From positions 160,001 to 224,000 of the forward strand of contig CAVWHO010000020.1 of the NCBI GenBank assembly GCA_963754875.1: 64,000 bases of DNA. Direction: 5' to 3'. The DNA is from Nitrospirota bacterium (GTDB taxonomy: Bacteria > Nitrospirota > UBA9217). Under the pieces are notes generated by a model. That model saw only the letters and a program-made list of their open reading frames with translations, was not told the origin of the DNA and searched no databases. Shown here in pieces: positions 5,812 to 19,433 of this stretch. Position 1 is the stretch's first letter; each line of letters starts with the position of its first letter. Made by a program: the position numbers and the translations under genes.

Positions 5812-5870
5812 TGGCCTCCTCTAAGATTGATCGGTTCCTGTCAGGCGCACTTATGAGGAGCGTTCGGCAG

Positions 5871-5898
5871 TTACAACGCGGCCGTGAGACGGGCGCCG
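5871..5898 (-). repeat. Half attC (R'/L' arm)
   Basis: Core GTTGTAA matches inverse core at 5035-5041 in 6/7 positions; arm CACGGCCGC can pair with the half site at 6897-6923. Confidence 0.6.
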
Positions 5899-5911
5899 TT
5901 TAAGCAACCTT

Positions 5912-6842
5912 TAGGGTCAGGTCCTTTGTTATGGTATTAGCCCCTCATCCTCACAATGTTGCTCACTGTTGAGGTGTGGAGCCCCAGGTGTCGGGCGATT
6001 TCGCTCTGCCGATATCCATGCTTCTCAACAGCCTCGATCATCTTTCTGTCCCGCTTTCGTTTGTCCCCAAGTATACTCTCTTGGAATATTTTCTCAAGCA
6101 GCGGCCGATTCGCGTAGCGCTGACTCCTCGGTATCTCAGGAACATGCTTGTGTTTCTCCAGGTGATCTACGAGGCTGTCTACGAAATCATCTTCGCCCAG
6201 AATGATCTGCCCTTTGACGTCCGTCCAGATCGGCTTTGCCCCGATCCCCCATTTGACGAACTGGCGGTATTCTTTCTCGGCCTTGGCTCTCTTCCCGCTG
6301 AATTGCCCGAGGATCCAGTCCGTAGTGAGACAGGGGTGAGGCGTTTCTTTGCCTGCGGTTGCACGGTAACTGCTCCATTTCCACCGTTCAGGGCGTTCTA
6401 TCATCCGTGCCCGGACAGGATTTAATACAACGTATCGGCAGACTTCGAGAAGGTAGCTGTCTTTCTGGATAAGAATTCCTTTAAACCTGCCTTGGAAGAG
6501 GTGCCCCGTTCGTTGATGCCGATTGTTAAATAACTGCGTGTAAACGCCATTTAACTGTCTCATTCCAAGCGAGAGGTTCCCGTCTGGGGTTTCGATGAGC
6601 AGATGGTAGTGATTGTCCATGAGGCAGTAGGCATGGCACAGCCAGTTATAGCGCTTGCAGACGTGCTGAAGGGTGCGGAGAAAAGTTTCGCGGTCGGGGT
6701 CATCTTTGAAGACGGGCTTCTTTTCGTTGCCGCGAGTGGTAACGTGATACACGGCGCCGGGATATTCGATGCGAAGGGGTCGAGTCATGATGCGAACGTA
6801 GCATAGCCAATATAAAATGTCAACACAAAAGACCTGACCCTA
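5912..6842 (-). mobile_element. RAYT-like element 1 bounded by 18-bp inverted repeats
   Basis: TAGGGTCAGGTCCTTTGT (5912-5929) and ACAAAAGACCTGACCCTA (6825-6842), one mismatch. Confidence 0.8.
5937..6788 (-). CDS. REP-associated tyrosine (Y1 HUH) transposase with C-terminal HTH
   Basis: RPLRIEYPGAVYHVTTRGN, YCLMDNHYHLL (HUH), GHLFQGRF, RYVVLNPVRA, WSSY. Confidence 0.9.
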   Translation of the reverse strand: MTRPLRIEYPGAVYHVTTRGNEKKPVFKDDPDRETFLRTLQHVCKRYNWLCHAYCLMDNHYHLLIETPDGNLSLGMRQLNGVYTQLFNNRHQRTGHLFQGRFKGILIQKDSYLLEVCRYVVLNPVRARMIERPERWKWSSYRATAGKETPHPCLTTDWILGQFSGKRAKAEKEYRQFVKWGIGAKPIWTDVKGQIILGEDDFVDSLVDHLEKHKHVPEIPRSQRYANRPLLEKIFQESILGDKRKRDRKMIEAVEKHGYRQSEIARHLGLHTSTVSNIVRMRG

Positions 6843-6896
6843 TAGGTCCTTTTTCGCCATACGCCTCCCGTGGGTGAGGGGTTTTGATGGTTCACA

Positions 6897-6923
6897 GCGT
6901 CCCACACGAACCGCAGGTTGGAA
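6897..6923 (-). repeat. Half attC (R''/L'' arm)
   Basis: Plus strand GCGTCCCACACGAACCGCAG-GTTGGAA, nearly identical to the corresponding arm of the attC at 4983-5041. Confidence 0.7.
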
Positions 6924-8338: not shown

Positions 8339-9079
8339 TCAACGATTGATCTTTGATTTGCTCTTTCTCATTGATTCTCCTTTCAGGTCTATTTTGTAGG
8401 CGTTATGCACCAGACGGTCCATGATAGCGTCAGCCAAGGTCGGGTCGGCCAGGATATCATGCCAGTGCTTAACCGGCATTTGGGTAGTTATGAGGGTCGA
8501 CCGGCGATCATAACGGTCCTCGATGATTTCCAGAAGATCTCTTTGCTGTTCCGTCGTGAGCGGAGCAAGTCCGAAGTCGTCGAGGACAAGCAGGTCTGCC
8601 TTGAGAAGTGACTTCATCAGTTTCCGATACCGTCCGTCGTGATGCGATAGGGCCAGATCTTCAAGAAGCCTCGGCAGCCTCTGATACACGACGGCATGAC
8701 CATCACGGCAGGCTTTGTGGGACAGGGCGCAGGCAAGATAGCTCTTTCCCACGCCGGTCGGGCCGATGATAAGCAGATTGTGATGCTCGATAATCCACTG
8801 GTTCGACGCAAGCGACAGAATGAGCGATTTGTCCAGCCCTCGGGGCTGACGGAAGTCGATGTCTTCGATAGATGCTGAGATTCTCAGTTTTGCAGCTCGT
8901 AAGCGCGTAACAAGCCGTCTGTTCTCTCGTTCTGTCAGTTCTCGGTCAATAAGGAGCCCAAGCCGCTCCTCAAAGCTTAGTGAAGTCGCTTTTTGATTCT
9001 GCAGTTGTTCACGCAGGGCTTTTGCCATGCCAAAAAGACGGAGTTGTTCGATCTTGTCGAGTGTGGGATGCGCTAACAT
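8339..9079 (-). CDS. istB: IS21 helper ATPase IstB
   Basis: GPTGVGKS Walker A, LLVLDDFG Walker B, ADAIMDRLVHNA...GESMR. Confidence 0.95.
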   Translation of the reverse strand: MLAHPTLDKIEQLRLFGMAKALREQLQNQKATSLSFEERLGLLIDRELTERENRRLVTRLRAAKLRISASIEDIDFRQPRGLDKSLILSLASNQWIIEHHNLLIIGPTGVGKSYLACALSHKACRDGHAVVYQRLPRLLEDLALSHHDGRYRKLMKSLLKADLLVLDDFGLAPLTTEQQRDLLEIIEDRYDRRSTLITTQMPVKHWHDILADPTLADAIMDRLVHNAYKIDLKGESMRKSKSKINR

Positions 9080-9097
9080 AATAGTCTCCTTTTGCAG

Positions 9098-10639
9098 TTA
9101 GTTATAGTATTCGCTGCCACGGATGTTGCTGTGAGTGATCGCCTGTGATGCGGCTTTTGGCTCTGGTAACGGTTTTTTGTCTAAATTTGTTTCAAGGATG
9201 GACTTGACGCTTCCGAAACTGATGCCCCCGATGGCGAGTGCTCGCTTGCAGGCAGCCTCGACGCGTTCTTTGCCAAACTTCTTGGAAAGAGTGATGATCC
9301 CCATACAGGAACGAAAGCCTTGTTGTGGGTGAAGCTTCTTTGCGAGAATGGCCGTAACCAGCTCTGCCGTTGATTTGCCGGTTTCCGATGCCCAGCGTAT
9401 CAGGCGCTCTGGGGTCCAGTCAGCATAGTCCCGATGGGACTTCGGCATGTGCTCGGCAAGTGTCGTATGTCTTCCCTTGGCATAGGACCGGATATGTGAG
9501 GCGATGCGTTTGTTGTGAAAGAAGACTTCTACAATCGATTCCGTTAGCCGTACGTCCAGGTATTCATTGCGGAGTTGGTAGGGTACGCTGTAATAGTGGT
9601 CATTGACTTCGACGTGGTAATCGATGCCGGAACGTTTTTTTATCTTCCATTCTGCGTACTCGAAGGCCACAGCAGGCAGCGGTTGTAATGCAGGCTTATC
9701 GATCTCCAGAAAACGGCTCATACGGCTGCCGGAGAGCTTCTTGAAGGGCCGGTTATTGAGTCTATCCAGCAGTTCCCGGATAGCGGCATTGAGTTCTGCG
9801 AGGCTGAAGAAGGTACGGTTCCTGAGGGCTGCCAGGATCCAACGCTGCACCAGAAGGACTCCGGCTTCAACTTTCGCTTTGTCTTTAGGCTTCCTGACGC
9901 GGGCAGGAATGACCGCAGCACCGTAATGAACTGCAAGCTCTTGATAGGTGCGATTGACGCCTGGCTCATAGCGACAGACCTTGGTGATGCCGGAGAGAAG
10001 ATTATCAGGGATCAGGATCTCGGGCACACCGTCGATGAACTTAAGGGTCCGGACATGGGAACCGATCCAGTCTGGCAGACCCTGCGTAAACGTTGCTTCG
10101 GCATATGTAAAGTTGCTGGCGCCTAGGACGGCGACGAAGATCTGACAGTTGTGTACCTCTCCGGTGGATTTGTCGATTACCGAGACTGTTTGGCCACAGT
10201 AATCAACAAACAGCTTTTCTCCTGCAAGATGAACCTGTCGCATGGAGATATCGAGCTTTTTTGCATAGGCGCGATAGAGGTCACAAAAATGTGCGTACTG
10301 ATATCCTTCAGGATATTGCGCTTTGTACTCGTCCCACAGGAGCATCAGGGTAACACTTTTACGCGCAAGCTCGCGGTGAACATCCTCCCATACAGGGAGC
10401 GGACGTGGAGATGTGGAGACAATGACCGGCGGGTAGAGAAGATGCTCGAGGGCGGTATCGTCCAGGTCTGCCGGCAGGGGCCATGATAGCCCGGCCTGTC
10501 TGGCTCGTTTCGTATACTCGTCAACGGTGCTTCTGGCTATTCCACAGCTTTTGGATATAGCGCGGCGGTCTAGGCCGCAGGACCATTTGAGGCGTAAAAC
10601 TTCTTTAATTGTTCGCACGGGTATTCTTTCTCTCGTCAT
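9098..10639 (-). CDS. istA: IS21 transposase IstA
   Basis: N-terminal HTH, GEKLFVDY, PDNL, PKDKAKVE, YYSVPY. Confidence 0.95.
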   Translation of the reverse strand: MTRERIPVRTIKEVLRLKWSCGLDRRAISKSCGIARSTVDEYTKRARQAGLSWPLPADLDDTALEHLLYPPVIVSTSPRPLPVWEDVHRELARKSVTLMLLWDEYKAQYPEGYQYAHFCDLYRAYAKKLDISMRQVHLAGEKLFVDYCGQTVSVIDKSTGEVHNCQIFVAVLGASNFTYAEATFTQGLPDWIGSHVRTLKFIDGVPEILIPDNLLSGITKVCRYEPGVNRTYQELAVHYGAAVIPARVRKPKDKAKVEAGVLLVQRWILAALRNRTFFSLAELNAAIRELLDRLNNRPFKKLSGSRMSRFLEIDKPALQPLPAVAFEYAEWKIKKRSGIDYHVEVNDHYYSVPYQLRNEYLDVRLTESIVEVFFHNKRIASHIRSYAKGRHTTLAEHMPKSHRDYADWTPERLIRWASETGKSTAELVTAILAKKLHPQQGFRSCMGIITLSKKFGKERVEAACKRALAIGGISFGSVKSILETNLDKKPLPEPKAASQAITHSNIRGSEYYN

Positions 10640-11877: not shown

Positions 11878-12762
11878 CTATTTGGCTAAAAAGCGTGTAA
11901 TGAGTTCATTGACTACTTCCGGTTGTTCCTGATGAACGAAATGGCCGGCAGAAGAAATAATATGTCTTTCAAAATCACGGAGAAAAGCAGACTCCATTCC
12001 TTCAGTTGTCTCGACGCCTATGCATCCGTCATTGGCGCCATGCAGATACATTGTTGGAACGGGGATGGGATCGCTTAAGCGTTTCCGTATATCGGCCAAG
12101 CCCGGCTGATGAAGGGCCGGATTGAACTGGGAACGATAATACCCCAAAGCAGCTTTCAATACAGAAGGTTGTCGAAAAGCTTTCTTGATTTCGTTCATTA
12201 CCGATTTGGGGTAGAGCCAGCCAGGAGACCACTCTTGCCATAACCTTTCTATAAACTCGAAATCGTTATGGGCTATCGCCATCTCAGCGATGGGTAGCTG
12301 GAAGAAAAACATGTACCAGGATCGACGTTGTTGTTTTGGGTTTGATACCAGCGCTCGTCCAAAATTTGCTGCGGTCGGTACGGACATGCAGACAATTTTC
12401 GAGATTTTTTCGGGTGCAAGGATGGCAGCGCTGCGAGCAACTATGGCACCCCAATCGTGCCCGATAAGAATCGCGGGTTGTCCCGTCAGTTGATCAATCA
12501 ACGACAATACGTCTTGGGCAAGAGCTGCGACTTCATAAGGACCTTCGGACTCAACATCTGACGGAAAATATCCACGCATGTACGGAGCTACCACTCGGTA
12601 GCCTTTTTTTGCAAGGACAGGAATTTGATGCCGATAGGAAATCGGGAGATCGGGAAAGCCGTGCAATGCTACGATGAGCGGCCCCTTTCCCTCTTCGAGT
12701 GCATGGATTGTGTGACCATTCGACTCAACAGTGATGCGGTTATAAATTGGATCTTCGGCCAC
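11878..12762 (-). CDS. Alpha/beta hydrolase, epoxide-hydrolase-like (cassette)
   Basis: HGFP, GHDWG nucleophile motif, RRSWYMFFFQ, AGHFVHQEQP. Confidence 0.9.
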   Translation of the reverse strand: MAEDPIYNRITVESNGHTIHALEEGKGPLIVALHGFPDLPISYRHQIPVLAKKGYRVVAPYMRGYFPSDVESEGPYEVAALAQDVLSLIDQLTGQPAILIGHDWGAIVARSAAILAPEKISKIVCMSVPTAANFGRALVSNPKQQRRSWYMFFFQLPIAEMAIAHNDFEFIERLWQEWSPGWLYPKSVMNEIKKAFRQPSVLKAALGYYRSQFNPALHQPGLADIRKRLSDPIPVPTMYLHGANDGCIGVETTEGMESAFLRDFERHIISSAGHFVHQEQPEVVNELITRFLAK

Positions 12763-12835
12763 TTTATCTCCTTTTGAATGTTAAGCGGTCATATCCGCTT
12801 GGACTACTGGTTAGCGCAGTACGTTATTTTCCCTG

Positions 12836-12883
12836 AGCCAACGACGAGTTGAGCCCCGCGCCGCAGAGCGCGGGACTCGGAAC
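12836..12883 (-). repeat. attC lacking its R'' box (R'' found at 14882-14888)
   Basis: AGCCAAC-GACGAGTTGAGCCCCGCGC-CGCAGA-GCGCGGGACTCGGAAC; core GTTGGCT matches inverse core at 11854-11860 in 6/7. Confidence 0.75.
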
Positions 12884-12897
12884 AACTTAGAAAAAAA

Positions 12898-13835
12898 CTT
12901 AGGGTCAGGTCCATACTGTTTACCTTTTATAGTGTCCGCACAGAATTCTGCTCACATATGTGGAGTGTACGCCGAGGTGATCAGCAATTGTACGCTGAGT
13001 GTATCCGTACTTCTCAACAGCCTCGGCAATTTTCCTGTCCCGTTTGCTTTTGTCGTCCAGTATACTCTGACTGAATATTTTATTAAGTGTTGGCCTGTTA
13101 GCGTAGCGTTGGCTCTTGGGGATTTCAGGAATATCTTTTTGCCTTCTGAGATGATCGGCAAGGCTGTCAACAAAATCATCTTCGCCTAGAAGGACTTGGC
13201 CCTTAACATCAGTCCAGATCGTTTTCTTGCCGATCCCCCATTTCACAAACTGGCGGTATTCTTTCTCTGCCTTGCCTCTTGTTCGGCTGAATTGTCCGAG
13301 TATCCAATCTGTGGTAAGGCACGGATGGGCCGTTTCTTTCCCCCCTGTGGCCCGGTAGCTTGACCATCTCCAGTCTTCGGGTTTTTCTACCATCCTGGCT
13401 CGGACTGGATTCAGCACCACATAGCGGCAGACTTCAAGAAGGTGTGTGTCTTTTTGGATGATGATGGCCTTGTACCTGCCCTGGAAAAGGTGTCCGGTTT
13501 TGTTGTAGCGCTTGTTCCGTGCCTGAGTATAAACGCCGTTTAATTGCCTCATGCCGAGGGAAAGATTACCGTCGGGAGTTTCTATCATGAGGTGGTAGTG
13601 ATTGTCCATGAGGCAGTAAGCGTGACAGAGCCAGTGATAGCGTTTGATGACGAAGGCAAGGATTTTGAGAAATGTCTCCCGGTCCTGGTCGTCTTTGAAT
13701 ACGGCTTTTTTATCGTTGCCCCGATTGGTGATGTGGTACACCGCGCCGGGGTATTCTATGCGTAATGGACGAGTCATAAAGGTGAGTTTAGCAGAAGTTT
13801 AAAGAAAAATCCAACAGTATGGACCTGACCCTAAG
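12898..13835 (-). mobile_element. RAYT-like element 2 bounded by perfect 23-bp inverted repeats
   Basis: CTTAGGGTCAGGTCCATACTGTT (12898-12920) / AACAGTATGGACCTGACCCTAAG (13813-13835). Confidence 0.85.
12920..13777 (-). CDS. REP-associated tyrosine (Y1 HUH) transposase, paralog of 5937-6788
   Basis: Same HUH/Y1 motifs, clearly homologous but diverged. Confidence 0.9.
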   Translation of the reverse strand: MTRPLRIEYPGAVYHITNRGNDKKAVFKDDQDRETFLKILAFVIKRYHWLCHAYCLMDNHYHLMIETPDGNLSLGMRQLNGVYTQARNKRYNKTGHLFQGRYKAIIIQKDTHLLEVCRYVVLNPVRARMVEKPEDWRWSSYRATGGKETAHPCLTTDWILGQFSRTRGKAEKEYRQFVKWGIGKKTIWTDVKGQVLLGEDDFVDSLADHLRRQKDIPEIPKSQRYANRPTLNKIFSQSILDDKSKRDRKIAEAVEKYGYTQRTIADHLGVHSTYVSRILCGHYKR

Positions 13836-14577
13836 ATGTTGGGACTTTCTCTACGGCAATTCAGGAGCTGTGTTGATCGACCGGTTCGGCTGCAATCCGT
13901 ACCGAATCATCGAGACCGGGTACGACACATTCGCTGCATCCATGAAACAGGCGATTCCCCGTATTCGGCGGGATACGATCACCCGGCTCTGGCAGGATTC
14001 TGAAAGCTCGATTCTGAATGAGCTGCCATCAAGCTATCGCGATGTTCTGGAAGACCAGTTCCAGGACCTGATCGCTCAGTTTCGGGACAGAGAGCATCGG
14101 AAAGAACAGATCGTGGAGCAGATGACGATTATCTTCCGAAGGCTTCGCGATGACGACCCCAGAATCCCCCCGCCGACCGCCGGGGTCATCTCGGAAAAGA
14201 ACCTTGCGCTGCTTATCGCCGAGACCGGGCCGATGGCTGATTTCCGCAATTGGCGGCAGTTGATGCGGTATGCCGGTCTCAACATCCGGATGCGTCAGAG
14301 TGGAAAGTATCAAGGCAAAAACAAAATCTCCAAGAAAGGCAGCCCGCTGCTCCGAAAGGTTTTGAACCATATCGTGCTGCCGCTGGTGCGAAAAGGCTAC
14401 CTCTACGGAGATTACTATCACAAGAAGCGAGAAACGGAAAAGATGGCGGGGACGAAGGCCATGACCATTGTGTCGCGCCACTTTCTACGTAAGTTCCACG
14501 GCTGGTACAAATCAGGTGCTGCATTTGATGAAAAACGGTATTTTGCCTGTGAGGCGGAGTTTTTGAAAGCGGCCTAA
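13836..14577 (+). pseudogene. IS110/IS1111-family transposase, C-terminal half only
   Basis: ALLIAETG..DF...RQLMRYAGLN....QSG......ISKKGSPLLR Transposase_20 motif; N-terminal DEDD domain absent, replaced by RAYT element 2. Confidence 0.85.
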
Positions 14578-14619
14578 AAATGAACCAACGAACAAAGTAA
14601 TACGACTACTCCGGTGGAC

Positions 14620-14781
14620 CCTGGTCCCGAGATGACCGCTTGCGCCTTGTAATCTCTCTCGAGAGAATTATCCTGTCGACATTCCGTCACTCGGGATCAG
14701 GCGTTCCCAACATGGCCTATAAAGTATGGGTGTCCTGCAAAAGCAAGGACCGAACCCAGGTATGCTTGCCAGTTGCGGAAC
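14620..14781 (+). ncRNA. Candidate IS110/IS1111 bridge (seek) RNA
   Basis: Two consecutive stem/internal-loop/stem modules (14620-14701, 14703-14781) in the non-coding end downstream of the transposase. Confidence 0.65.
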
Positions 14782-14889
14782 ATTTATCGCCAGAGACTAA
14801 GGAGAAATTATCAAAGATCAAAAGATCGAAGGAGATCTCTGTCTCTTTTTCTTGACTATTTCCGCCTAAAGGTAGGCGCAGGTTAGTTT

Positions 14890-15381
14890 TCAATCTGTAT
14901 TTGCATCTTCGTCGTCTTTAGCCTTGTGCTTAATTTTGCCTGGCATTACCCAGCCGAAAATGAAGAATTCGATTGCCATCCGAATTTTGTCGAAAAGTGA
15001 ATAACCTTTAAAAGTGTCTTCGATCGGAACGCTCGTCTTCTCGATATAATCAGACAGAAGCTCTTTGGCCTTTTCGTATTGGTCGTCTTGAACCTGTATC
15101 ATCTTTGCATTATAAAGACCAATATGGGGCCCCACTTCCAGAGAGCCAAAATTATCATTCCTCACAAAATAGCTGATTTCCTCAGAATCGAGGATGCTTC
15201 TTATTAAACTCAACTCAGTTTCGTTTTTTGGGGAATACAGGTTGACGAAATTAACATATTCTGGCGCGGATGGTGCCTCTTCTCTGCGCAGTGTCTCCTC
15301 CTCGTGAATCAAAGGCACATCACAGTCCGGGCAAGTAAGAAGCATCCATTTATATTTTTTCTTGCACCTGGGGCAAAACAT
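14890..15381 (-). CDS. Zn-ribbon + DUF2007-like putative signal-transducing protein (cassette)
   Basis: MFCPRC...CPDC, ELSLIRSILDSEEI, IQV....YEKAKELL; perfect core/inverse core GTTAGTT/AACTAAC. Confidence 0.75.
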   Translation of the reverse strand: MFCPRCKKKYKWMLLTCPDCDVPLIHEEETLRREEAPSAPEYVNFVNLYSPKNETELSLIRSILDSEEISYFVRNDNFGSLEVGPHIGLYNAKMIQVQDDQYEKAKELLSDYIEKTSVPIEDTFKGYSLFDKIRMAIEFFIFGWVMPGKIKHKAKDDEDANTD

Positions 15382-15394
15382 AATAACCTTTCAA

Positions 15395-15455
15395 AACTAA
15401 CGATCGCATCACGCGCCGCCATATGGGCGCGTCGCTGTGGACGCGATTGGTGTAC
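15395..15455 (-). repeat. attC site with mutated inverse core
   Basis: AACTAAC-GATCGCATCAC...GTGGACGCGATT-GGTGTAC (GTT changed to GGT). Confidence 0.7.
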
Positions 15456-15468
15456 CTTATATGTTCTA

Positions 15469-16676
15469 GTGTAGTGTCTCTCAATTAACTGGTGTTATGC
15501 CATGACTTGTGATAGAATGCTGTTCATGGCACGACACGCTTTAATTATAGACCTTACGGCGTCAGATCGACAAGAACTGGAGCAATGGGTACAAGCTCAT
15601 CGCACCCCGCAACAAGTCGCTCAACGATGTCGAATTATTCTAGCAGCAGCGAGTGGCCAACAAGACAAGGCCATCGCAAAGCGAATTCAAATCAATTATA
15701 AAACGGCCGCATTATGGAGGCAGCGGTTCTGTAGCGAAGGTCCGGACTGCCTTTGGGAAGTTGCGGCAGGTCGCGGACGTAAACCGGAGTTAACGACAAC
15801 CAAAATTAATAAAATAATTAGATGCCACTCTGCAATCAAGGCCTGCTGGCGCGACCCACTGGAGTTGCCGAACAATGGCTGAAAAGCACGGCGTCAGCAA
15901 AGCAACGATCAATAGAATATGGCAGAGCCATAACATTAAACCGCACAGAACTAAGAGCTTCAAGTTGTCCCGCGACCCACGGTTTTTGGAGAAGCTTACC
16001 GATGTAGTCGGTCTTTATCTGAATCCTCCAGCAAAAGCATTAGTGCTCTGCGTGGATGAGAAAAGCCAGATTCAAGCGCTGGATCGCACACAACCTGGGT
16101 TGCCTTTGAAAAAAGGGCGTTGTGGAACAATGACCCATGATTATAAGCGCAACGGTACCACGACGCTATTTGCGGCGCTCGAATTGGCACAAGGTAAAGT
16201 CATTGGTCAGTGTTACGCGCGGCATCGCCATCAGGAGTTTCTCAAGTTCTTGAAGCAACTGGACGCTGAGTTCCCGGTCGAAAAGCAATTGCACCTGGTG
16301 ATGGATAACTATGGAACCCATAAACATCCCAATGTCCAGAAATGGTTATCACGTCATCCACGCTTTGTGACGCACTTCGTTCCGACCAGTTCAAGTTGGT
16401 TGAATCTTGTCGAGCGTTGGTTCGGAGAACTGACGGGAAAACGATTACGTCGTGGTGTCTTTGTCAGCGTGGACGCGCTCAAGAGCGCGATCGAAGAGTA
16501 TTTGGCTACTTGGAATAAAGACCCAAAACCGTTTGTATGGACCGCAACCGTCGAATCGATTGTTAAGAAACTTGGACGCTGCAAGCAGACATTGGAGAAA
16601 ATTCAGCCAGGCTGCACGTTACCTCGCTCTCGCAAGAAAAAGGCTGATAACACCAGTCGTTTGTGAGACACTACAC
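15469..16676 (+). mobile_element. IS630-family element, copy 1
   Basis: IRs GTGTAGTGTCTC/GAGACACTACAC, inserted at CTAG with TA duplication. Confidence 0.93.
15526..16666 (+). pseudogene. IS630 transposase with +1 frameshift at ~15821
   Basis: ATTAGATGCC versus ATTAATGCC in intact copy 2; [28 protein letters not shown]. Confidence 0.85.
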
Positions 16677-17857: not shown

Positions 17858-18970
17858 TCATATTTGCGGCGGTCCTTTGCAGCGCGCGGGCTGCATGATC
17901 TCGATGGTACGCATTGTTCGTTCGCCGCAGGCAGGGCATTTGGCGACGTCGATGCCGGCGATCCTGAGCAGGGATTCCTGCCACGTCTCGGTTTTCTGTT
18001 CCCCCTTGTTCTGCTCGGCGCAGGCTAGAAGCTCCCTGCAGCGATCGAGTTTCTTCTTACGGCATCTGTTGCCCAACAAACCGTAGTGCCTGATCTTCAC
18101 GAACCTGTCGGGAAGGACGTGAAGCAGGAACCGCCTGATGAACTCATCGGGCTTAAGAGGCATGATTTTGGTTTTGTTGTTATCGGCGTAGTCGCGCCAC
18201 CGGAAGGAAACTTCGTCTTTATCGATCTTCACGAGCCGGTGATTGCTGATCGCGATACGGTGAGTGTACCTGCCGAGATATTCAAGAACACCCTTGGTTC
18301 CGTCGAACGGCGGCTTGCAGTAAACGACCCATTTCTTCTTGTACAGATCGGTGATCAAAGCCTTGAATGCCCCCGGCGACGCAAAATGGCTTACGGCGCC
18401 GGGGTAAATGAGTTTATTTTCGGCACGGAGCTTTTCCAGATAAGCAATAAATTTTCCCCGAAAGAGCTTCGACATCACTTTGACCGGGAGGAAGAAGTCA
18501 TTCTTGCATGACTTCCATTTCCGTCCATCACGGGACAAGCCTCCGCCGGTGACGATGTTGTGGAGGTGCGGATGGTCCATGAGATTCTGTCCCCACGTGT
18601 GTAGGATCGAGATAAACCCGATGTCAGCGCCAAGATGCTTCCGGTTTTCCGAGAGCTGGGCCAGGGTTTCTGAGGCGGACTTGAACAGGATTCCGTAGAG
18701 AACTTCCTGATTCCGGAGCACCAGAGGATTGAGAAGATCGGGGAGGGTGAAGATAACATGGAAGTACGGGATGGGAAGCAGATCTTTCTCCCGAGCCTCT
18801 ATCCACTGCTCTTTTTTGAGGAACTGGCACTTGGGACAATGCCGGTTTCTGCAGGAGTTGTACGAGATCACTTTCGTTCCGCAGTGCTCGCACTCGTCCA
18901 CGTGGCCGCCTTGGTCGGCGGTACGGCAGGTTTCAATCGCCCGCATGGCGCGAAGACGATTCAAGGGCAT
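17858..18970 (-). CDS. IS91-family rolling-circle (Y2 HUH) transposase
   Basis: YNSCRNRHCPKCQ Zn finger, HVIFTLP, HTWGQNLMDHPHLH, YLGRY; homology (EVADIFRRYG) extends upstream to ~19045 without an ATG. Confidence 0.92.
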   Translation of the reverse strand: MPLNRLRAMRAIETCRTADQGGHVDECEHCGTKVISYNSCRNRHCPKCQFLKKEQWIEAREKDLLPIPYFHVIFTLPDLLNPLVLRNQEVLYGILFKSASETLAQLSENRKHLGADIGFISILHTWGQNLMDHPHLHNIVTGGGLSRDGRKWKSCKNDFFLPVKVMSKLFRGKFIAYLEKLRAENKLIYPGAVSHFASPGAFKALITDLYKKKWVVYCKPPFDGTKGVLEYLGRYTHRIAISNHRLVKIDKDEVSFRWRDYADNNKTKIMPLKPDEFIRRFLLHVLPDRFVKIRHYGLLGNRCRKKKLDRCRELLACAEQNKGEQKTETWQESLLRIAGIDVAKCPACGERTMRTIEIMQPARCKGPPQI

Positions 18971-19072
18971 GGGATGAGCGTTCCGGTAAAGAGGACCGTA
19001 CCGGCGAAAGATGTCCGCGACTTCGATCTGTCGGCTATCTCGCGTCTACACGGCGGGTGTCGCGTGTGCAGG

Positions 19073-19255
19073 CTACGAGGGTTGCGAAGGATTTGAGAAG
19101 GGGCCTAAGTCCAGAGGGCTCACGATTTTCGAGAGGTTCTTTTTGCTCACGTGGAGATAAATGGTGGTCGTTCTCACCGACGCATGGCCGAGCAGAAGCT
19201 GAATATAGTGCAGATCAGCTCCCGACTCCAGCAGGTGTGTGGCGAAGCTGTGGCG
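19073..19255 (-). pseudogene. C-terminal fragment of the IS91-associated tyrosine recombinase
   Basis: [33 protein letters not shown]...SPLD directly upstream of IS91 tnp. Confidence 0.85.
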
Positions 19256-19282
19256 GCTATTCCGCATGCGGAATAGCCGCCA
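19251..19282. repeat. Perfect 32-bp palindrome joining two recombinase fragments
   Basis: TGGCGGCTATTCCGCA|TGCGGAATAGCCGCCA. Confidence 0.95.
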
Positions 19283-19433
19283 TTCATTTGCCACCCACCT
19301 TTTGCAGGCCGGCTATGACCTCCGCACGATCCAGGAACTGCTCGGGCACGCCGATATCCGGACGACGATGATCTACACCCACTGCGTGCCGAGCAAAACA
19401 TTGAAAGAGATGAAGATCCCGTTGGATTTCTAG
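19278..19433 (+). pseudogene. intI: C-terminal fragment of integron integrase
   Basis: [35 protein letters not shown]...PLDF, IntI-style box II, divergent from attC array; IntI-specific insertion not present to confirm. Confidence 0.75.

Follow-up and report, generated by a model that had tools for sequence, protein, structure and literature searches.

The window, the 64,000-nucleotide stretch of Nitrospirota DNA analysed here, contains an integron cassette array in which the tail of an element of an IS110 family with a 425-aa protein (13841-14873, the whole surviving part) lies between a RAYT element and a DUF2007 cassette gene (Table 1). The boxes of an attC site are named R', L', L'' and R''. 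The open reading frame at 13819-14577 has PF02371 as its sole domain match, represents the last ~245 codons of a protein family with both IS110 domains, and gave 308 homologue matches, the best of them 93% identical. DNA identity to L021, the closest intact element, begins only at 13841-13842, at about codon 181, from which it follows that the DEDD domain and the left end have been lost; the start at 13836 given in the first-pass annotation falls inside the RAYT element. Because this RAYT element stands in place of the left end and the catalytic domain, the window copy is dead. The IS110 element and its RNA region occur as a single copy in the genome, and no intact allele of the attC of the DUF2007 cassette was found among the relatives and genomes searched. 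The motifs picked out by the first-pass annotation (TGCGCCT at 14641-14647, AGGCGCA at 14874-14880 and CGCAG-GTTAGTT at 14877-14888) are all present, and it was right that the element is antiparallel to the cassettes, the transposase lying on the plus strand and the cassettes on the minus strand.

Table 1 Features of the IS110 remnant and its surroundings, in window positions
Feature	Position	Strand	Remarks
Truncated separate attC: R' box, L' GTTGAG, own L'' and spacer, without R''	12836..12888	+	Not a half of the IS110 target site
RAYT (Y1 tyrosine transposase) element	12898..13839	-	Takes the place of the left end and the first ~181 codons of the IS110 element
RAYT 23-bp terminal inverted repeats	12898-12920 and 13813-13835
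RAYT gene	12920-13777	-	Within element 12898..13839
IS110-family recombinase 3' remnant, from a 425-aa protein gene	13841..14577	+	PF02371 domain and catalytic-Ser motif present, DEDD domain absent
Predicted bridge RNA, two stem/internal-loop/hairpin modules	14601..14790	+	RNA ends approximate
Target loop 5' guide, 9 nt	14639..14647	+	Reverse complement of 14874-14882; IS621 LTG equivalent
Target loop 3' guide	14673..14681	+	14673-14679 = left target; CA 14680-14681 = first two left-end bases
Donor loop 5' guide	14721..14728	+	Matches reverse complement of intact relatives' left end at 7/8 positions
Donor loop 3' guide: GGTA (= right end) and two bases covarying with first two right-target bases	14759..14764	+
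TTGACT, predicted -35 box	14852..14857	+	17 nt before left-end CATACT in circle junction
Right end of IS110 element and single shared A (14874)	14865..14874	+
Surviving half of target attC: L'' end, spacer, R'' box GTTAGTT	14874..14888	+
DUF2007 cassette gene, its attC invaded by the IS110 element	14890..15381	-

Other mobile DNA is also present in the array, including an IS21 element and a two-frame DDE_3 transposase (8339-10639 and 15502-16666). At 17858-19433 an IS91-family transposase adjoins two head-to-head tyrosine-recombinase tails, one of which (19275-19433) scores best with the integron-integrase model by a narrow margin (72.7 vs 67.3 bits).

The truncated attC at 12836 had been read, together with the R'' half at 14877, as a single site. 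In such a layout a single site, 12836-14888, was interrupted by the IS110 element and the RAYT element invaded later, which agrees with an R' half that lacks R'' on the left and an R'' half on the right; the joined halves measure 59 nt, the length of an attC, and form 4 of 6 L-box pairs, pairing as poor as that of 2 of 14 comparable native sites. However, sites of the 12836 type do not run into AGGCGCAG: among the 29 other matches in 64 genomes none continues in this way, the next letters being AAC in 23, AAT in 2 and GAAG in 1, while 3 are overshoots of the pattern. The window itself reads GAACAACTT after the 12836 half, that is, its own L'' and spacer, and so retains AAC-AACTT; its CTCG is not followed by the left-end CATAC; and L021, identical in guides and right flank, differs in its left half, which matches its guide at 7/7 positions. 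A single split attC is thus very improbable, and by sequence comparison the 12836 half is part of a different site from the IS110 target. The RAYT insertion would have been accompanied by a deletion that removed the R'' of the 12836 site, the IS110 left end and the left target half. In the window copy the RAYT element would occupy what were once the left end, the DEDD domain and the left half of the attC. Both RAYT elements of the array (5866-6910 and 12836-13839) begin directly after a cut-off attC left half, and at 5866-6910 an attC right half lies ~60 nt downstream; such elements may have a preference for attC hairpins and remove adjacent DNA.

Relatives of the element and the predicted bridge RNA

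The 171 relative loci fetched comprised 80 of 149 metagenome, 80 of 254 genome and 11 viral loci, and the set analysed consisted of the 119 loci at at least 36% identity together with the window (120 in all). Parsing succeeded for the left end in 95 of these, for the right end in 61 and for loop 1 in 83, and 81 RNA cores were aligned; since the loci were parsed by end motifs of our own choice, tidy cases are favoured in all these counts. At 50% identity clustering and E ≤ 1e-30 the protein family has 173 representatives, and the genomes of relatives include Nitrospirota, Desulfobacterota and Bacteroidota. Full-length relatives combine PF01548 and PF02371 (the DEDD RuvC-like and C-terminal Ser domains) with the motifs in 99-106 of 107 and a length of 425 aa in 82 of 107, and the NF033542 profile gives 120.9 bits, below its cut-off of 140. 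Intact elements start with CATACTATTAG directly after an A and finish with CCTAAAGGT directly before an A, with non-coding ends of 90-130 nt on the left and 225-449 nt on the right. Their terminal inverted repeat has five well-kept positions (42-52 of 52 loci) and four partial ones (29-40), after which agreement falls to 8-16 of 52. Close relatives were absent from 60 related genomes (best 27-42% identity), from viral contigs (11 loci, 21-36%) and from plasmids (178 records, all below 60%, the best 30 of the 178 being at 22-26%).

Several further observations were made on the relatives. In the left ends of L021-L151, CTTCTCC ... GGAGAAG occurs in 79 of 92 and is predicted to form a hairpin over the ribosome-binding site of the recombinase gene, and the right flank of L027 continues into another attC-like stretch, possibly a rearranged array. 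The proteins P0002-P0120 and L146-L191 mostly end in ...AA (often LKAA), a trait common to the sister group of 420-440 aa; this ending resembles a degradation tag. Sister elements L146-L179 (23-28% identity) start with AGCTTGCTATATT and lie in short purine-rich repeats, with flanks that are not attC-like by eye. As a group, L146-L191 share with the present family the length class, the C-terminal ...AA and the long right end, but differ in their ends and flanks at 20-29% identity, and the RNA model R1 matches just one of them, weakly (L158, E 0.0045).

The region 14578-14880 folds at -100.5 kcal/mol (z -3.87), a stability reached by none of 100 shuffles, and this fold contains the stems named in the first-pass annotation. 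Counted in the alignment of 81 ends (not with RNAalifold or R1), these stems are kept across the relatives: the pairs of the outer stem at 14630-14636 in 80-81 of 81, those of the inner hairpin at 14649-14655 in 69-81 of 81, and those of 14703-14716/14768-14781 mostly in 68-81 of ~80. Compensatory changes occur in both outer stems and both inner hairpins. The pairs that the single-sequence fold places inside loop 1 are present in only 11-36 of 81, so pairing within the loop is not conserved. RNAalifold, applied to 20 ends, found module 1 and, of module 2, the inner hairpin but not the outer stem, because of which R1 was built without that stem; R1 matches relatives down to 38% protein identity. 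Rfam gave no match at E ≤ 1 in 12500-15500. The conserved two-loop layout is that of the IS621 RNA.

Loop letters, element flanks and the attC target

In a register-free scan, in which each RNA column was compared with each flank position (4296 and 4320 tests), the top ranks were taken by 14640-14646, which complements the right flank, and by 14674-14678, which has the same letters as the left flank; the single other high match outside the two predicted diagonals was 14764. With identical rows removed, guide-flank matches numbered 186 against 112.5 ± 7.5 expected by permutation (49 loci) and 206 against 119 ± 6.7 (53 loci), values reached in 0 of 20000 permutations in either case. On disjoint pairs of the protein tree, from which three frameshifted loci were left out, the own flank was preferred over the swapped flank by 10:2 and 19:0, while off-register controls gave 1:10 and 4:4. 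Loop 1 thus covaries with its targets on both guide strands, and together with the conserved fold this supports the proposal of the first-pass annotation of a two-loop bridge or seek RNA downstream of the transposase, with loop 1 as the target guide.

Two details of that proposal are borne out only in part. The final C of the TCGAC noted in loop 1 does not read the target, being C in 74 of 81 RNAs when the target base is C in 15 of 55. The guide was also said to be programmed against the attC sites of this lineage; indeed, when the 62 guide pairs are compared with 10 attC-like sites of the genome, places 1-7 all go to the seven pairs of the clade to which the window copy belongs, but the window guide matches at most 7 of 11 positions at any site, and the perfect 12-mer occurs 0 times in the genome. 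Loop 1 varies, with 62 distinct guide pairs among 81 loci, and its match is loose: 11/11 in 2 of 42 loci, with a mode of 8 and six or fewer in 8 of 42. The right flank is matched at just 0-1 of 6 positions in 8 of 49 loci.

Loop 2 reads both ends of the element, its 5' side the left end, which is lost in the window copy, and its 3' side the right end. The donor-guide role earlier ascribed to it stands, but the match then given, to the right end, does not: over 50 loci, loop 2 agrees with the reverse complement of the left end at a mean of 6.7/8 and with the right end at 5.1/8 at the best offset. Each matching position of 14721-14728 agrees with the reverse complement of the left end in 54-65 of 67 loci, position 2 never doing so; as this guide is nearly invariant, its assignment rests on identity rather than covariation. 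On the 3' side, the letters of 14759-14762 are those of the right end followed by A in 62 of 65 loci, and in four of these loci both have changed together; the four co-changes all come from one clade, and three distant loci disagree. In 59 of 62 loci, joining the ends leaves 17-18 nt between TTGACT and the CATACT that follows it; TTGAC was part of the search anchor in this count, with the spacing left free from 15 to 23.

The first base of the right flank is A in 55 of 55 loci, and GTT follows eight bases on in 37 of 55. Empty sites rebuilt with long left flanks have GTT at +8 in 28 of 36, and 17 of these 28 also have an upstream AAC box and L'/L'' pairing of at least 5/6 around one unpaired base. 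This L-box test allowed a spacer of 5 or 6 nt, a fixed 5-nt spacer having missed sites (8 of 28); it is passed by 1.9% of shuffles and 34% of chimeric sites, and failed by 11 of the 28 rebuilt sites. The geometry of the rebuilt sites (AAC box, L' pairing, one unpaired base) therefore indicates that insertion adjoins the extrahelical base of L''. Whole-site folding was dropped as an attC test, native (12/39) and chimeric sites (33/156) being barely separated. The rebuilt sites are attC-like, antiparallel to the cassettes and cut at one spot in the L'' box, in agreement with the earlier proposal of attC as target, and the attC words that it listed near 2413, 5023 and 17096 are indeed there. In the 36 loci of at least 4 kb, the other strict attC sites were 18 in the same and 0 in the opposite orientation, all from just 8 loci, and no match to IntI was found in the 119 loci. 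Contig C13 of the genome carries an intact intI (371.8 bits) and five attC sites. At C13:77983-78042 lies an intact attC with an 11/11 match to the guides of element L023, a cognate pair.

Mismatched guides are common, yet the position within attC is fixed, and this would also be expected if the protein read the attC hairpin as the main target signal and the RNA loops merely fine-tuned or registered the cut, a dual match as in ISPpu10, whose efficiency, in the available part of its description, is raised by a stem-loop of the target (10.64898/2026.03.19.712850). The same account states that the stem-loop is no substitute for base pairing, and in the present family the guides follow their targets position by position across independent pairs; we regard a primary role of the hairpin as rather unlikely, although it is partly compatible with guidance by RNA. 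Our main reading, to which we assign a probability of roughly 0.88, is that the window holds the dead 3' half of an insertion sequence of a 425-aa IS110 family, with a non-coding end that probably specifies a bridge RNA with two loops, by which the recombinase would be directed to the L'' box of attC in antiparallel orientation. By analogy with IS621, the element would circularise, its junction forming a TTGACT-17-CATACT promoter, and the predicted bridge RNA would load on the recombinase before exchange of the top strands.

The core at position 8 and known guide-RNA systems

When core positions are numbered as in IS621 along the cassette strand, the two 5' guides, of 9 nt for the target and 8 nt for the donor, end at positions 9 and 8, respectively. 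Position 9 is T in donor and target and is the sole core base they share. Position 8 is G in the donor and C in 27, G in 15, A in 8 and T in 3 of the 53 targets, and so differs in 38 of 53. In these 38 loci, 14680 matches the incoming donor in all 38, and 14763 matches the incoming target in 28 and the cognate donor in none; independent tree pairs gave 8:0 for 14763 and 8:1 for 14764. The identical dinucleotide core of the IS621 type is lacking, which marks a variant, and we infer either a shifted cut or a third handshake base. In the accessible parts of the IS621 papers, handshake pairing involves positions 6-7 and the CT core is called invariant (PMC11208160, PMC11208158), in contrast to the 38 of 53 unlike cores here; the ISCro4 site pairs were filtered for identical cores, and published design filters, so far as that text was available, demand matched cores (PMC13626964).

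The mismatch could be an artefact of register, with a single-base core flanked by two loop bases acting as ordinary handshake guides, and the counts fit this equally well: there is one shared A, followed in each loop by two bases that match the other partner. Nevertheless, the shifted register gives the guide lengths of IS621, T at position 9 and a donor left arm identical at 6 of 7 positions, for which reason an artefact seems somewhat unlikely; both it and a third handshake base depart from the shared dinucleotide. By analogy with IS621, the loop bases beside the shared A would pair only with the incoming strand and would thereby favour insertion.

As far as the available parts of the reports on IS621 and ISCro4 (IS622) extend (PMC11208160, PMC11208158, PMC13626964; PDB 8wt6, 9t56), these elements share with the present family the DEDD plus Ser recombinase, two internal loops with the target loop first, the junction promoter, handshake covariation at position 7, T at core position 9 and guides of equal length (9-nt LTG, 8-nt LDG); the donor of IS621, ACAGTAT.CT, resembles the ATAGTAT.GT found here, with 6/7 identity in the left arm. 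In contrast, the RNA lies downstream of the gene in this family and the target is attC, and the IS621/ISCro4 proteins, of 328-341 aa against 425 aa, are weakly similar (E 7.5e-11 and 2.3e-8). ISPpu10 is likewise an IS110 element with its target in one hairpin arm, but that target is described, in the accessible text, as a conserved intergenic sequence with a CT core (10.64898/2026.03.19.712850).

The first-pass annotation had pointed to the IS1111-attC group, works on which reportedly include Tetu and Holmes 2008 and Post and Hall 2009. In the part of PMC11187229 available, guide RNAs directing ISKpn4, ISPst6 and ISPa25 to attC are already published, IS110-group elements with a downstream non-coding region are noted as exceptions, and the IS1111-attC elements (ISKpn4, ISPst6, ISPa21, ISPa25) resemble this family in inserting into attC with a downstream guide RNA that has top- and bottom-strand matches. 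A divergent member of that group would also explain the long non-coding region downstream of the transposase, the shared order of the guides, with the top-strand match lying 5' of the bottom-strand one, the fitting 7/3 terminal offsets and the GGCCGATAA word common to both RNAs. The assignment fails, however, on length (425 aa against 330-350 aa), on motif (GLNI....SG instead of GL-P----S(t)G, with GLNI in 98 of 107 and P in none) and on the end repeats (5-9 bp and imperfect instead of 11-13 bp subterminal and near perfect), and the N-terminal motifs and termini differ when compared by eye. Six motifs of the family have no exact match in the ISfinder protein file of PMC11187229, and no IS1111-type motif was found in the DNA searched. 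Published IS1111-attC members, as far as that source goes, have one common guide against 62 guide pairs in 81 loci here. Membership is highly unlikely; comparison with ISKpn4 by motifs and by eye suggests an independent origin.

In the literature searched, which included little of the subscription journals, neither this family nor an unlike core was found described, and the 86 bridge-RNA models of 10.64898/2026.10.21.760802 may already hold this RNA family (further sources: PMC11616780, PMC9229058, PMC11089894, 10.1101/2025.05.14.653916, 10.64898/2026.08.31.748434, 10.1101/2025.10.25.684509). The loop letters change in step with integron sites across relatives, which makes a separate lineage of RNA-guided recombinases likely, one that would do without a complete match of the dinucleotide core required in the model enzymes; the family is probably distinct from known guide-RNA elements, the principle itself being known. 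More tentatively, and at slightly less than even odds, we propose an undescribed lineage of the IS110 group in which attC targeting evolved independently of IS1111-attC, guides are retuned host by host to the drift of attC, and unlike cores are recombined with position 8 of both loops set to the incoming strand. If this is true, position 8 is a third handshake base, insertion is more one-way, and the matched-core rule of bridge-editor design is lifted; for IS621 and ISCro4 it predicts recombination of unlike position-8 cores once the loops have been matched to the incoming strand. The relatives also amount to a collection of 62 naturally occurring guide pairs of one recombinase family, together with the attC sites that they target. 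The finding suggests that RNA-guided attack on the cassette sites of integrons has arisen repeatedly and separately, and such attack would freeze or reshape cassette arrays.
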